A DNA stretch of 64,000 nt, from positions 783 to 64,782 of the forward strand of contig CAJFQI010000004.1 in assembly GCA_904419005.1 (NCBI GenBank). Direction: 5' to 3'. Made by a program: the position numbers and the translations under genes. The notes under the pieces were generated by a model. That model did not search any database. It worked only from the letters and a program-made list of their open reading frames with translations, and was not told the DNA's origin. Shown in pieces: positions 10,938 through 14,852 of the stretch. Positions within the stretch are counted from its first letter, which is position 1, and every line of letters begins with the position of its first letter. Source of the DNA: Candidatus Avimonas faecium (GTDB taxonomy: Bacteria > Bacillota > Clostridia > Oscillospirales > Acutalibacteraceae).

Positions 10938-11360
10938 ATGGATGACCGGGAATTGATCGCACAGGCGCGCCGGGCAAGGCAAAACGCCTACTGCCCGTAT
11001 TCCGGCTTTGCGGTCGGAGCCGCCCTGCTGGCCGAATCGGGCCGTGTGTATCTGGGCGCGAATTGTGAAAACGTTTCCTTTGGGGCGACCATCTGTGCGG
11101 AGCGGGCGGCTCTGGCGGCGGCTCTGACGGCGGGGGAACGCCGCTTTGTCGCCCTGGCGGTGGCGGCGGGGGATACGCCGGTCGCCCCCTGCGGGATCTG
11201 CCGGCAGATGCTGGCGGAGTTTGGGGATCTTACCGTCCTGCGGGCGGCGGCTGAGGGGGAGGAGGTCCTCCGCACCACCCTGTCCGCCCTGCTCCCGGAG
11301 GCCTTCGCCCGGTTCCGTCCGGACCAAAAAACAGAGGGGAGGGCGCCGGCCGATGAATAA
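10938..11360 (+). CDS. cdd: cytidine deaminase
   Basis: 140 aa with the zinc motifs CAERAA and PCGICRQ. Confidence 0.92.
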   Translation: MDDRELIAQARRARQNAYCPYSGFAVGAALLAESGRVYLGANCENVSFGATICAERAALAAALTAGERRFVALAVAAGDTPVAPCGICRQMLAEFGDLTVLRAAAEGEEVLRTTLSALLPEAFARFRPDQKTEGRAPADE

Positions 11361-12291
11361 CAGCGGGAAGGGGATTGCCCCGCGCGAAAAAATGGAGGCC
11401 GGCCGCCAGGAGGCCCGGCTGACCGACATCGGTACGGTCAAGGCCCTGCTGGCACGGCACGGCTTCCATTTTTCCAAAAAGCTCGGCCAAAATTTCCTGG
11501 TCAACCCGTCAGTCTGCCCGCGCATGGCGCAGGCCTGCGGGGCGGATGAACATACCGGCGTGCTTGAGATCGGCCCGGGGATCGGCGTGCTGACGCAGGA
11601 GCTCGCCCGCCGCGCCGCCCGTGTAACGGCGGTGGAGCTCGACAGCCGCCTGCTGCCGGTGCTGGAGGAAACCCTGTCGGCGTATCCCAACGCCCGCGTC
11701 CTACAGGGGGATGCGATGGAGCTGGACCTTAACCGGGTGATCGCCGAAGACTTCGCCGGCCTGCGGGCCGTGGTCTGCGCCAACCTGCCCTATTACATCA
11801 CGTCCCCGATCCTGATGCGCCTGCTGGAAAGCCGCCTGCCGGTTGACGGCATTACCGTCATGGTGCAGAAGGAGGCGGCGCAGCGGCTCTGCGCCCGGCC
11901 GGGGACAAGGGAATGCGGCGCGGTAACCTTTGCCGTCTGGTATTATGCGGAGCCGGAGCTTCTGTTCCCGGTTTCCCGCGGGAGCTTCCTGCCTGCGCCG
12001 CATGTCGACAGCGCGGTGATCCGGCTGAAGGTGCGAAAAGAGCCGCCGGTGTATGTGCGGGACGAGGCGCTGCTCTTCCGCCTGGTGAGGGCGGGCTTCC
12101 GCCAGCGGAGGAAAACCCTGGTCAATGCGCTGAGCGGCGCCGGCATCGCCAAAGGGGAGGCGGCGGCGCTCCTGCGGCAGGCCGGGATTCCGGAAACGGC
12201 CCGGGCCGAGGAGCTGACCTTGGAAATGTTCGCCGCCTTAGGGAACGCGGCGGCCGGCTGTTTTAGGGATGGGACGCCCCTTGACAGATGA
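11353..12291 (+). CDS. rsmA: 16S rRNA (adenine1518/1519-N6)-dimethyltransferase
   Basis: Trimmed from the 381-aa track ORF. The ATG overlaps the cdd stop (ATGAATAA). KKLGQNFL and the SAM motif LEIGPGIGVLT are present. An alternative start is ATG 11392. Confidence 0.92.
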   Translation: MNNSGKGIAPREKMEAGRQEARLTDIGTVKALLARHGFHFSKKLGQNFLVNPSVCPRMAQACGADEHTGVLEIGPGIGVLTQELARRAARVTAVELDSRLLPVLEETLSAYPNARVLQGDAMELDLNRVIAEDFAGLRAVVCANLPYYITSPILMRLLESRLPVDGITVMVQKEAAQRLCARPGTRECGAVTFAVWYYAEPELLFPVSRGSFLPAPHVDSAVIRLKVRKEPPVYVRDEALLFRLVRAGFRQRRKTLVNALSGAGIAKGEAAALLRQAGIPETARAEELTLEMFAALGNAAAGCFRDGTPLDR

Positions 12292-12377
12292 AAAACAAAA
12301 TGCCATAATAGCTTTCACAAACTTCGGTAAGTTTATGAAGCTATTGTGGCATTCCTCGTCACAGCATCCGGTGTCTT

Positions 12378-12569
12378 TCAGCGTTTTTCCTGCTTATACG
12401 GCGATTCCCTGGTATAGGGGATCTGGTTTTCCGTCAGGTATTTCTCAATAGCCGTGTCCAAAATGCGGGAGAGAGGGATGCCGCTTTGGAGAGAGTAGTT
12501 ATAAACGGCGTTGTAGAGGCCCTTGTCAACAGAGGAAGATAGCCGGGCGCGGTATTTCAGTTCGTTCAT
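12378..12569 (-). CDS. ribbon-helix-helix (CopG/MetJ-like) small DNA-binding protein
   Basis: Trimmed to ATG 12569 behind GAAAGGA, giving 63 aa: MNELKYRARLSSSVDKGLYNAVYNYSLQSGIPLSRILDTAIEKYL. This reads as a beta-strand plus two helices. The family call is from pattern only. Confidence 0.5.
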   Translation of the reverse strand: MNELKYRARLSSSVDKGLYNAVYNYSLQSGIPLSRILDTAIEKYLTENQIPYTRESPYKQEKR

Positions 12570-13140
12570 TGTTGCACCAATCCTTTCATAACTGTGTCGG
12601 GGCGGCGGATTTGTCGGGCAGACAAAGGGCATCATTCCCTTGAATTGGCTTTGGAATCCAATTGTTTTCACAGTTATATGTACTCTCCACATAATTAGTA
12701 TACCCTTTTTCCGGCCGAACTTCTATTCCCATAAGTTTCATAAACACCCATACACTTCATCAGCGGGGCCGGCTGGGGCCGGAAGCGGTCCCCTGCTCGG
12801 CAGAATGCTTCGGCTGCTTTTGGGGGAGCCGCTGCCGCCTGCCTCTTTCCCGCGGGCGGCTTTGGGGCCCGCCGCAGGAGCAGCGGCTTTCGGGCTTGCC
12901 GGGGGATCTGGGAGCGCTACAAAGCGATGGGGGGGCGGTATCCCCTAAAGAAATGGCTCGCAGGAGGGGCCGTGTTTTCTTCCTTTCCGGCGCGAAGCCG
13001 CATTCCCCGGCTTATGGCCGGCGGGTCCTGTGCTGGAAAAGGCGGTTGGGCGCGCCCTTGCGCCGGGGAGCAGCGCGCTGTTTTAAGCGGTCGCAAACGG
13101 CACGCTTTCCCGGCTGCAGTGAGAAAGGAATGGTCATCGT

Positions 13141-13392
13141 ATGAAAGGAAAACGGGATATTCCGTCGTATATTGGGCAGAATCTCACCTACTATCGTCAG
13201 AAAAACGGCTATACGCAGGAAACGCTTTGCCAGATCCTGGGCTTGACCCGTTCCACCTATGCGTATTATGAAACCGGCCGGACGCTCCCGACCGTTATGT
13301 TTTTAAAGAAGCTGGCAAAATTTTACCGGATTACATTGGATGAGCTGACCGATGAAACGCTGGTTCCTAAGAAGAAATGGAACACGCTGTGA
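13141..13392 (+). CDS. XRE-family helix-turn-helix transcriptional regulator
   Basis: 83 aa. IGQNLTYYRQKNGYTQETLCQILGLTRSTYAYYETGRTLPTVMFLKKLAKFYRITLDEL is the classic Cro/CI HTH_3 layout. GAAAGGA SD lies upstream. Confidence 0.85.
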   Translation: MKGKRDIPSYIGQNLTYYRQKNGYTQETLCQILGLTRSTYAYYETGRTLPTVMFLKKLAKFYRITLDELTDETLVPKKKWNTL

Positions 13393-13430
13393 CGCGGCGG
13401 GACAAAAGGGAGACACTTCATAAGGAAACA

Positions 13431-13467
13431 AAGGGACATTGCCGCAAATAGGCAGTGTCCCTTTTGT
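13431..13467. terminator. bidirectional terminator between the XRE and radical-SAM genes
   Basis: 13-bp stem aagggacattgcc / ggcagtgtccctt with one G-U pair. T-rich runs follow on both strands. Confidence 0.7.
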
Positions 13468-13484
13468 ATGAAAGCAATTTTTAT

Positions 13485-14522
13485 TCATTTTCTGCAATAT
13501 TTATTTAGCAGATATTCTATATAATCGCCTTTACTGAATAATCTTTGGCTTTTACTATCGCCTTGTGCTTGAACGATGTCACAAAGAGGAACGGATAGGC
13601 GCGTGTGCTGTGCAGCGCTTTTGTTTTCGGTATAGTTCTCTATTATAGTTTCTACTCTGTCCGTTTTTAAATTTCCCAAAAGCCAAGCTGTTTCAGGCGG
13701 AGCCACATTCGGATAAACATTAAACTCTTTATCTATGTAGAAAGTGGGAGTTGCACTTACATAACTTGCTGTCGAATTATCATTTATCAGTTCTTTGTAG
13801 AGTACCTGTTCTGTTCTCCCAAAAACATCTTCTATATTCGCTTTGTTAAAATGCTTTAATGTATACTCTACAAGCGTTTGTGGGATTTTCTGCAAATCTT
13901 CGGGCGTTACTCTGATTGCATACAGTTTTTCGTTTTCTCCGTCACAAGAACCTTGATGCAAAAAAAATGAGAATTCTCCGCCAAAAGATTGGCATCGGTT
14001 TTCTAAATCTAAGCTTTTTATGAGATGTTCAACAAACAGAAGCTCATCAATATTATCTTTGTTAACAAAAACTTGTATGCGGGGGGAAATTCTACTTTCA
14101 AGTAATATTTCAATGGCTTCCAATATTTCGTTGTATGCATTTTTTCTGCCTGTATAATAATCCGTTTTTTCCTGACCTCCGAACAGAGTAAGCTGGGCCT
14201 TTTTTAAACCGAGTGAAGAAAGCCATTTAACGTATTCTTTGTCGCGAACTATACGCCAAATGCTGATAAGCTCAAAATGTTTTTCATGCGTATCGGATAG
14301 ACTATTGCATAGATCCCAAAGCTCTTTGTAATTATCGTTATAATCTGGTTCCCGATACCAGTCATAAACTGTTAAGCAGTTTGTAAATGGACGAAACTTT
14401 TCCGCAAGAAATCTTAAATCATCATTCGTCAAATTTCCGTTTGGAGAGTGTCCAATCCAACAATGCTTACAACGATTTGGACAACCAAACATGTCAAGAC
14501 ATACCGTTATGCTTGTGAACAT
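13485..14522 (-). CDS. radical SAM enzyme, unassigned subfamily (foreign, low GC)
   Basis: 345 aa. CPNRCKHC (CX3CX2C) lies at residues 14-21. No SPASM or twitch Cys cluster is visible at the C-terminus. A strong SD (TAAGGAGGG) is present. Sampled 60-nt lines count 30-33% G+C. Confidence 0.8.
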   Translation of the reverse strand: MFTSITVCLDMFGCPNRCKHCWIGHSPNGNLTNDDLRFLAEKFRPFTNCLTVYDWYREPDYNDNYKELWDLCNSLSDTHEKHFELISIWRIVRDKEYVKWLSSLGLKKAQLTLFGGQEKTDYYTGRKNAYNEILEAIEILLESRISPRIQVFVNKDNIDELLFVEHLIKSLDLENRCQSFGGEFSFFLHQGSCDGENEKLYAIRVTPEDLQKIPQTLVEYTLKHFNKANIEDVFGRTEQVLYKELINDNSTASYVSATPTFYIDKEFNVYPNVAPPETAWLLGNLKTDRVETIIENYTENKSAAQHTRLSVPLCDIVQAQGDSKSQRLFSKGDYIEYLLNKYCRK

Positions 14523-14571
14523 CTTTTTATCCCTCCTTACAATCTGAAATCAAGTTCCCCTGAAACGAGAA

Positions 14572-14605
14572 ATAGTTAAGATTAAGGATTTTGGCGTCAA
14601 AATCC
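14572..14605 (-). promoter_or_regulatory. putative promoter of the radical SAM gene with overlapping palindromic operator
   Basis: Minus strand: TTGACG (14595-14600), 17 nt, AACTAT (14572-14577, a weak -10). The perfect palindrome GGATTTTG-gcgt-CAAAATCC (14586-14605) covers the -35. Confidence 0.45.
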
Positions 14606-14852
14606 GATGCTCGCTAAACAGATAGATAAAATTTGGGGCACCTTCCTTACGGAGAGTGCCTCAAGGCGGACAACCCTTTGTCCCTTCTTTTTTGCATTGG
14701 CACAGCAGCATTCCGCTGCCGTGGGGGATCCGCTTCCAGTCAGGGAAACAGCCTGGAAAAGACGATCCCCGCCCGGGGTAACGCCTTGCGTGACAGCCTA
14801 TCCGTGGCCCGTGCCCTGCCCCGCCGGAGGGCGGGGAATCGCAGCGAGGGCC

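Follow-up and report, generated by a model that had tools for sequence, protein, structure and literature searches.

We describe a radical S-adenosylmethionine (SAM) enzyme gene at positions 13485-14522, on the minus strand, of a 64,000-nucleotide stretch of DNA from Candidatus Avimonas faecium (hereafter, the window). The gene is predicted to encode an intact, selected enzyme of a small, distinct and undescribed family with no curated subfamily assignment, and the window copy belongs to a lineage of low guanine-plus-cytosine (GC) content that moves among gut Clostridia as a single-gene cassette. Divergent members of the family lie inside histidine (his) operons, and others lie among arginine (arg) genes together with GNAT, NUDIX and PNPOx singletons. 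An accessory role of a metabolic or housekeeping type is therefore the most likely one, possibly tied to His/Arg metabolism or to amino-acid limitation rather than to phage defence, and we assign this reading a probability of about one half. The preliminary description of the sequence had proposed the same gene as a candidate for defence or self-protection, a reading that our data leave unsupported.

A predicted radical SAM enzyme of an undescribed family

The features of the gene are as follows.

13485-14522, minus strand: intact radical SAM enzyme gene, 345 amino acids (open reading frame and translation, PF04055, AlphaFold2 model, dN/dS)
14460-14483, minus strand: codons of CPNRCKHC, residues 14-21, the CX3CX2C motif predicted to bind a [4Fe-4S] cluster (sequence reading, family conservation)
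13600-13760, minus strand: putative cysteine-less SPASM remnant, approximately residues 255-308 (FYIDKEFNVYPN...WLLGNL) (profile alignment to anSME)
14532-14537, minus strand: Shine-Dalgarno sequence AGGAGG, 9 nt before the ATG (sequence reading)

The protein begins MFTSITVCLDMFGCPNRCKHCW and matches the Pfam Radical_SAM model (PF04055) at 46.2 bits, against a cut-off of 29.5; the length of 345 residues, the CPNRCKHC motif at residues 14-21 and the strong Shine-Dalgarno sequence, all given in the preliminary description, were confirmed. With both the superfamily motif and the core model matched, 13485-14522 is predicted to encode an intact radical SAM enzyme under selection. The ratio of nonsynonymous to synonymous substitution rates (dN/dS) is 0.08-0.12 against sister copies of the cassette gene, and these copies are under strong purifying selection. 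The window reading frame retains all residues that are invariant in a 25-sequence alignment, and an identical protein is encoded on at least eight contigs from different samples.

Searches against curated families support the earlier view that the protein belongs to none of the housekeeping radical SAM families. The best NCBIfam matches are weak and partial, reaching at most 21 bits against cut-offs of 300-650, and fall on the SPASM-type enzymes ACGX, NirJ1, AhbC/D, StsB and SkfB, with no match to MiaB, NrdG, QueE, HemN, SplB, BioB, LipA, Cfr or viperin. A PADLOC scan of the protein, pVip models included, gave no match, and PHROGs gave nothing significant. Membership of the Cfr/RlmN group was rejected, given the lack of an NCBIfam match, the position of the motif at residues 14-21 rather than in the middle of the protein, and the absence of any RlmN or Cfr structure among the 50 Foldseek matches listed from the Protein Data Bank (PDB). 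An activase of the PflA/NrdG type was also rejected: the NrdG2 model scores 10 bits (E = 0.38) against a cut-off of 131, and no glycyl-radical enzyme is found among the neighbours of homologues.

An AlphaFold2 model built from 25 homologues (predicted local distance difference test, pLDDT, 86.8; predicted template-modelling score, pTM, 0.84) retrieved 54 PDB matches at E ≤ 0.001 in Foldseek, and all 50 of those listed are radical SAM enzymes, headed by SkfB, anSME, BlsE, CteB, DesII, SuiB, MoaA and EpeE, and then by viperins. Template-modelling (TM) scores of ~0.4-0.56 and identities of 11-17% for the top matches indicate a shared structural neighbourhood but no specific family, and a Foldseek search of viral structures in BFVD returned generic radical SAM matches alone, at TM of 0.5 or less. 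The profile and structure comparisons that the preliminary description had proposed as checks thus assign no characterised radical SAM family to the protein.

A search of 5.8 billion proteins gave 626 matches; the top 120 each span the full length (91-100% of the query), at 62-88% identity. An exhaustive search of 1.84 billion representatives gave 77 clusters at E ≤ 1e-30, a number that rises to 579 at E ≤ 1e-3. Relatives are encoded, as a singleton gene, in 383 GTDB species genomes; the hosts are nearly all anaerobic Clostridia from animal and human gut, digesters and pit mud, with a few Bacilli and Bacteroidota. One host that can be cultured is Clostridium liquoris DSM 100320 (L071). Public names of members go no further than "radical SAM protein" or "MoaA/NifB/PqqE/SkfB family radical SAM enzyme", and literature searches on the motif, on BlsE/SPASM, on radical SAM enzymes in defence or resistance, and on the his operon found no paper on the family.

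The C-terminal half of the protein bears on the ancestry of the family. A PDB sequence search returned SkfB and anSME alone, with low scores, and a profile built from 30 family members with identities as low as 23% aligns with anSME (4k37) over residues 15-310 at E = 0.002. The anSME alignment spans the SPASM beta-hairpin and helix, with VYPC of anSME replaced here by VYPN and WRLGNI by W.LGNL; whole-chain structural alignments were obtained to SkfB, anSME and CteB, and the AlphaFold2 model has strands at residues 260-263 and 268-271. This profile alignment, VYPN and W.LGNL included, indicates that the C-terminal half is homologous to SPASM, with other residues in place of the cluster cysteines, and the SPASM model PF13186 finds no match in the protein. 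We infer that the family derives from SPASM-type enzymes resembling anSME and SkfB, with loss of the auxiliary-cluster cysteines. The preliminary description, which saw no SPASM or twitch auxiliary cysteine cluster, was thus right about the cysteines and missed a SPASM-homologous domain.

The resemblance to anSME (PDB 4K36-4K39) and SkfB (6EFN), the best matches in both sequence and structure, extends to the N-terminal CX3CX2C motif in the same position (from residue 13 onward in anSME), the partial TIM-barrel core and the C-terminal beta-hairpin and helix (…VYP.…W.LGN…). In contrast to those enzymes, the family keeps no auxiliary-cluster cysteine and has no sulfatase or precursor-peptide partner, and the likeness is distant, with identity of just 15-17%, TM of ~0.5 and NCBIfam SPASM models far below their cut-offs, as given above.

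Among the 30 family members, C18 is invariant and C14 and C21 are nearly so; these three are the sole cysteines conserved family-wide, and no C-terminal cysteine is among them. Members of at least 62% identity share C72, C177, C193 and C343 with little or no variation; all four are still kept at 55% identity (L086) and are missing from more distant members. A family-wide auxiliary cluster formed by these four was rejected on that ground. The polar residues conserved across the family are D10, H20, E58, Y65, S87, R90, D94, Y97, Q110, D121, R126, R148, E238 and N284.

Neighbourhoods of homologues

In three loci (L061, L066 and L073), the gene order is hisZ-G-D…B…H-rSAM-A-F…I-E, with the radical SAM gene (rSAM) exactly between hisH and hisA, and in two others (L086 and L091) it is hisZ-G-D-C-B-rSAM-A/I-E; in L008, the radical SAM gene follows hisE. 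Gaps in these operons are 1-15 bp and the genes are all co-directional, from which the his-embedded copies are predicted to be co-transcribed with the his genes. Neither hisH nor hisF occurs within the 17 kb examined at L086, L091 and L008. The radical SAM proteins of the two his-embedded sub-clades are 51-53% identical, and the His proteins beside them span a range that includes these values (HisZ 36-43%, HisG 45-63%, HisA 39-58%, HisB 56-68%). This agrees with a long joint inheritance of gene and operon and speaks against a recent insertion. The preliminary description had held that homologues always sitting in a biosynthetic operon unrelated to mobile DNA would speak against its reading, and such an operon is where part of the family lies.

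Other members are found among arg genes. At loci of the Acetatifactor type, the gene lies between argC and argJ among variable singletons (PNPOx, GNAT, AAA ATPase, Fic-like); it follows argD in L015 and L016, carB in L004, and argS and a homocysteine S-methyltransferase gene in the window. Since these loci are not phylogenetically independent, the enrichment is suggestive at most. As an observation of its own, the co-directional singleton array between argC and argJ differs among related species (L033, L038, L039, L046, L047 and L051), and this space looks like a hotspot for small accessory genes inside the operon.

When all open reading frames within 5 kb were clustered at 83 loci, no conserved partner emerged, and the commonest neighbour family, an ABC ATPase, was present at 13 of the 83; the earlier statement that the enzyme has no partner substrate gene therefore holds across the family. 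The nearest upstream and downstream reading frames (150 proteins from ~78 loci) were in addition scanned against Pfam and PADLOC. GNAT (12), ABC transporters (6), PNPOx (5), NUDIX (4), methyltransferases and his enzymes lead the Pfam list, in whose top ranks no integrase, transposase or phage family appears, and no RiPP-type transporter or peptidase partners occur among the neighbours. PADLOC returned generic ATPase and ABC-type matches alone and no coherent defence system; a lone pVip-like neighbour is MoaA-like, with the typical motif CNLRCVYCMPE, and was rejected as a viperin. Homologues are absent from 50,697 phage records, 72,556 plasmids and IMG/VR. With the neighbourhood survey negative, no phage, plasmid or viral homologues and no defence islands, the defence or self-protection context seen in the preliminary description was not borne out.

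The single-gene cassette

The window copy lies within a mobile unit whose features, together with the adjoining host features, are listed here.

13403-14668, minus strand: unit of ~1.26 kb common to several genomes, made up of 5' hairpin, leader, gene, terminator hairpin and 3' end (limits of DNA homology)
14635-14662, minus strand: 5' terminal hairpin GAGGCAC-TCTCCGTAAGGAAG-GTGCCCC, then AAATTTT (pattern search; fold -16.8 kcal/mol, z = -3.3)
14586-14616, minus strand: leader block TAGCGAGCATC with palindrome GGATTTTGACGCCAAAATCC and a TTGACG -35-like hexamer, oriT/mob-promoter-like (sequence and metagenome comparison)
13430-13464, minus strand: 3' terminator-type hairpin, 14-bp stem and 7-nt loop, between an A-run and a T-run (fold -22.9 kcal/mol, z = -4.3)
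13413-13427, no strand: 3' arm of a subterminal inverted repeat, partner 14643-14657, core CTYCGTAAGGAA (15 nt at 80%)
13399-13409, no strand: host-side half stem after the XRE gene, partner 14674-14684 (inverted repeat; flank pairing test)
13141-13392, plus strand: XRE-family helix-turn-helix (HTH) gene, convergent with the radical SAM gene and outside the cassette (HTH_3, E = 1.8e-15)

DNA homology to five further copies (L012, L013, L015, L017 and L018) starts and stops at window positions ~14663-14668 and ~13403-13406, and the flanks of all six copies are unrelated. With the same end points in unrelated contexts, this discrete unit is a cassette. GC content is 0.36-0.38 over the radical SAM gene against 0.64-0.75 in the flanks, in a genome of 65-70% GC, and this difference, together with the unrelated contexts of the copies, upholds the earlier proposal that the gene lies on foreign DNA. 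Most family members match the GC of their hosts, with a family-wide correlation between gene and host GC (r = 0.71), but the clade of at least ~80% identity to the query departs from this and keeps a GC of 33-36% (one copy 40%) in hosts of 36-64% GC.

The 5' hairpin, whose arms and loop read GGGGCACC-CTCCGTAAGGAA-GGTGCCCC, is kept at the left end of all cassette copies, and the 3' terminator-type hairpin, which had been recognised as a terminator from the outset, is conserved in the sister copies. The cassette 3' end is TTTCCTTAYGNAGYNTCTCCCTT, and the end motifs are GGGGCACCNTCCGTAAGGANGGTGCCCC and CCTTAYGNAGYNTCTCCC. The two ends carry an imperfect core of 12-16 nt (CTYCGTAAGGAA) in inverted orientation, its register constant over 7 of 7 loci; the significance is modest, since 0-37 of 500 shuffles per locus reach the observed score. 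One sister copy (L017, 8001-9038) has an internal stop codon and is probably a pseudogene.

The host sequences to the left and right of each copy are complementary to one another and often take the form of an A-tract-stem / stem-T-tract hairpin, with flank pairs such as CAAAGACCTT/AAGGTCTTTG in L012, AGCGGAC/GTCCGCT in L017 and, right after the XRE stop codon, GGGACAAAGGG/CCCTTTTGTCCC in the window. Cognate flank pairs reach about -18 kcal/mol, against -12.6 kcal/mol for non-cognate pairs (Mann-Whitney p = 0.0085, seven loci), and this better pairing supports insertion into terminator-like hairpins; with the cassette taken out, the two host half stems in the window would pair into such a hairpin behind the XRE gene. 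An empty site was sought via the exact XRE protein and not recovered, all contigs being occupied, and the cassette ends show no consistent target-site duplication or direct repeat. Insertion into terminator hairpins is therefore supported, not proven. No cognate transposase was identified for the cassette.

Known elements offer partial parallels. Mobile insertion cassettes (MICs) such as MIC231, which is mobilised by IS231 in Bacillus cereus, are short, transposase-less units with a passenger gene, and IS1397 is an insertion sequence (IS) that targets hairpins, at the loops of REP/BIME elements. The present cassette resembles MICs and hairpin-targeting IS elements in being a transposase-less unit that carries a passenger gene, in having inverted repeats near its ends and in lying between the halves of a host palindrome. 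Unlike in MICs, the repeat is imperfect, subterminal and only 12-16 nt long, there is neither a consistent target duplication nor a known empty site, and the leader carries an oriT-like block.

This block contains the perfect palindrome GGATTTTG-ACGC-CAAAATCC at 14586-14605, which the preliminary description had read as the operator of the gene's own promoter. The palindrome is present as described; the promoter did not appear in a consensus scan, which found no sigma-70-type site on the minus strand of the leader, and the palindrome is oriT/mob-like. A block of ~30 nt, (T)AGCGAGCATCGGATTTTGAC(R)CCAAAATCC, is present in 26 metagenome contigs (L092-L117), in nearly all of which it lies 75-95 nt upstream of a NikA-like gene (PF21983) and/or a MobA/VirD2 relaxase gene (PF03432), a position that points to homology with the oriT/mob-promoter inverted repeat of mobilizable elements. 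Compared with the oriT/mob promoter regions of mobilizable elements from gut Firmicutes, the block has the same orientation relative to the downstream gene, but that gene here is the radical SAM gene; homology to the oriT/mob regions stops at the block limits, and no relaxase or NikA-like gene lies near the window cassette. Neither the window leader nor any of eight resident loci gave an Rfam match to a riboswitch or leader RNA.

Parts of the cassette recur elsewhere. In L023 (9040-11360), the leader block stands ahead of another AT-rich gene, on the opposite strand, which is apparently frameshifted and encodes a xylose-isomerase-like TIM barrel (PF01261); the cassette 5' hairpin recurs alone at 11327-11358, after a DUF4004 and bactofilin gene pair. 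In L094 and L098, the hairpin that comes after the block has the loop of the cassette 5' hairpin (TTCCTTATGGA) on a different stem (GGGCGCC/GCGCCC), which hints at a structured element with compensatory stem changes. The recurrence of block and hairpin in these three contigs indicates modules common to different mobile DNAs. Cassette travel of this kind, without a transposase, with an oriT-like leader and into terminator hairpins, may be a way, so far overlooked, by which genes pass between gut Clostridia. A DUF4004 and bactofilin pair was also observed in L004, 5 kb from the radical SAM gene.

Proposed role and alternatives

In the role that we favour, C14, C18 and C21 would hold one [4Fe-4S] cluster that cleaves SAM to the 5'-deoxyadenosyl radical, which in turn would abstract hydrogen from a substrate that every host already has. 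That one lineage works as a lone gene in very different hosts implies a universal substrate, which could be a common small molecule or a universal component of the cell, and the reaction would need no electron-accepting auxiliary cluster. Radical SAM chemistry is not predictable from sequence, and this is a compact, well-conserved family without an assigned function; many radical SAM families are still uncharacterised, so that one more is of limited surprise, while the his-operon membership and the unusual cassette add some interest.

We regard as rather unlikely a stronger combination, namely that the enzyme carries out an undescribed radical SAM reaction of His/Arg metabolism and that the unit represents an undescribed class of single-gene cassettes in Firmicutes. 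If it were true, a new His/Arg reaction would explain the old, co-transcribed membership in his operons, including those without hisH or hisF in the 17 kb, and the cassette class would be defined by hairpin ends, an oriT-derived leader, insertion into terminator hairpins and varied cargo, such as the TIM-barrel enzyme in L023.

Several points weigh against an accessory metabolic role. The his link concerns 8 of the 83 loci, and the arg link is largely that of one genus, Acetatifactor; moreover, both kinds of site contain further variable singletons and might do no more than tolerate insertions. A self-contained cassette that crosses bacterial families is what would be expected of adaptive cargo, such as resistance or defence genes. 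The four cysteines kept in the closer clade (C72, C177, C193 and C343) could form an unconventional second cluster there, and the fusion of an XRE-type HTH to the N-terminus of a distant member (P0128) has no explanation under a metabolic role. Finally, the window copy may be poorly expressed, since its -10 region is deleted.

Adaptive cargo could be a resistance or detoxification enzyme that modifies or destroys an exogenous toxic compound (antibiotic, bacteriocin or xenobiotic) or alters a universal target as Cfr does, an alternative that we consider unlikely. It would account for how well a one-gene cassette has done in Clostridia of animal and human guts, for its presence in hosts of 36-64% GC from several families and for the requirement that the substrate be independent of the host. 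It would also suit the commonest neighbours, namely GNATs, ABC and MATE exporters, PNPOx and NUDIX, and the setting of a distant member (P0122) whose gene follows an HxlR regulator and has GNAT, beta-lactamase-fold, glyoxalase, aldo-keto reductase and major facilitator superfamily (MFS) genes around it. However, the singletons most often met in Firmicutes are in any case GNAT, NUDIX and ABC genes, the family is missing from the plasmids searched, no integrases or transposases lie nearby, and there is no similarity to Cfr/RlmN or to any NCBIfam resistance model. Moreover, the cassette copies differ by a synonymous divergence (dS) of 0.2-1.5, which indicates long-standing circulation and not one recent sweep, and the old his-operon membership fits poorly with resistance.

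The relatives nearest in sequence and structure (SkfB, anSME, CteB, SuiB and EpeE) modify peptides or proteins, and the SPASM hairpin is kept, so that the enzyme might be a maturase acting in trans on a conserved protein or on a distant precursor, for instance by an epimerisation that needs no auxiliary cluster. Against this, the cassette holds no precursor-like small reading frame (its leader offers no start codon for a precursor peptide, and neither leader nor trailer contains a reading frame), no gene of any size is conserved next to the enzyme at the 83 loci, RiPP-type transporters and peptidases are missing from the neighbours, and the auxiliary clusters typical of the class have been lost. 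We think a maturase quite improbable.

Viperin-like anti-phage defence, in which a single-cluster enzyme makes a chain terminator or some other antiviral compound from a common nucleotide, is less probable still. The gene does stand alone and move horizontally, and its product is predicted to be a single-cluster enzyme with an N-terminal CX3CX2C motif. BlsE (7VOB), DesII (8HZV) and viperin (5VSL, 6Q2P) are all among the structural matches. BlsE and DesII are single-cluster enzymes that act on nucleoside-linked sugars, and, like the present family, these three have no conserved auxiliary-cluster cysteines and no dedicated peptide partner. The conserved polar residues, among them the invariant R90, R126, R148, D94, D121, E58 and E238, would suit an anionic substrate. 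On the other side, similarity to BlsE, DesII and viperin is low (TM 0.43-0.53, identity 11-14%), BlsE and DesII belong to antibiotic biosynthesis clusters whereas the gene here is a singleton, and viperins (TM 0.43-0.57) fall below the peptide- and protein-modifying SPASM enzymes once scores are normalised by query length. Neither PADLOC pVip models nor NCBIfam viperin models match, and the protein was rejected as a viperin, in agreement with the preliminary description, which had seen in it no obvious viperin. The neighbours carry no defence-island signal, their lone pVip match being MoaA-like; most members are resident genes at host GC, some of them in his operons; and phage or viral homologues are missing. 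Ophion, a three-gene Pseudomonas defence system that includes a radical SAM enzyme, has an architecture unrelated to the single-gene cassette. An AT-rich singleton beside an XRE gene is insufficient to call defence.

A last alternative, equally doubtful, concerns the window copy alone, which might be silent or decaying and carried along as a passenger, irrespective of what the family does in other genomes: its leader (at 14545-14560) is without ~12-13 bp that are found in L012, L013, L015, L017 and L018 and that hold a TATAAT/TATGAT box ~25 nt upstream of the Shine-Dalgarno sequence in these sister copies, no sigma-70-type site was found on its minus strand, a hairpin with a T-run precedes it, and the L017 copy is already interrupted by a stop codon, but the window reading frame is intact with every residue of the 25-sequence alignment that is invariant, the identical protein recurs in different samples, a possible TTGACG-17-AACTAT promoter is left within the palindrome, and the strong Shine-Dalgarno sequence is kept.

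Neighbouring genes and divergent members

The XRE gene next to the cassette, which the preliminary description had taken for a neighbouring repressor, is present and convergent with the radical SAM gene, but it lies outside the cassette, and XRE-type neighbours occur within 5 kb at 6 of the 83 loci. No XRE homologue is found at the other cassette loci, those of the mobile clade, and XRE as a conserved partner was rejected on these two grounds.

Further from the cassette, a 63-aa ribbon-helix-helix (RHH) gene at 12378-12569 on the minus strand matches RHH_3/Arc-like models, not NikA, and has no homologue at the other cassette loci. A second patch of lowered GC (0.48-0.51) surrounds it at 12250-12700, between rsmA and the XRE gene, and this patch indicates that the foreign islet is a mosaic bigger than the radical SAM cassette. 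A cassette near rsmA in L016 was considered as the same insertion as that of the window and was rejected, because it lies in the opposite orientation and has neither XRE nor RHH gene. Three short contigs from independent assemblies (L124, L125 and L126) all begin exactly at window position 12790, ~350 bp upstream of the XRE gene, and this shared start suggests a repeat or a strain-variable junction.

A distant member (P0126, at L118 1849-3468) carries an N-terminal extension of 200 aa, and its gene has thrS on one side and an ogt-like DNA methyltransferase gene on the other; the extension looked ParB/Srx-like by eye, and as no Pfam model matched it at E ≤ 0.1, this reading was not used. A member of 60% identity lies on a 1.2 Mb scaffold of Muribaculaceae (Bacteroidota; L054, 8001-10400), directly upstream of four tRNA genes, with a GC of 0.40 in the gene against 0.485 in its flanks, an apparent cross-phylum transfer. 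In two Bianqueaceae loci (L052 and L055), two paralogous radical SAM copies occupy the same locus, about five genes apart.

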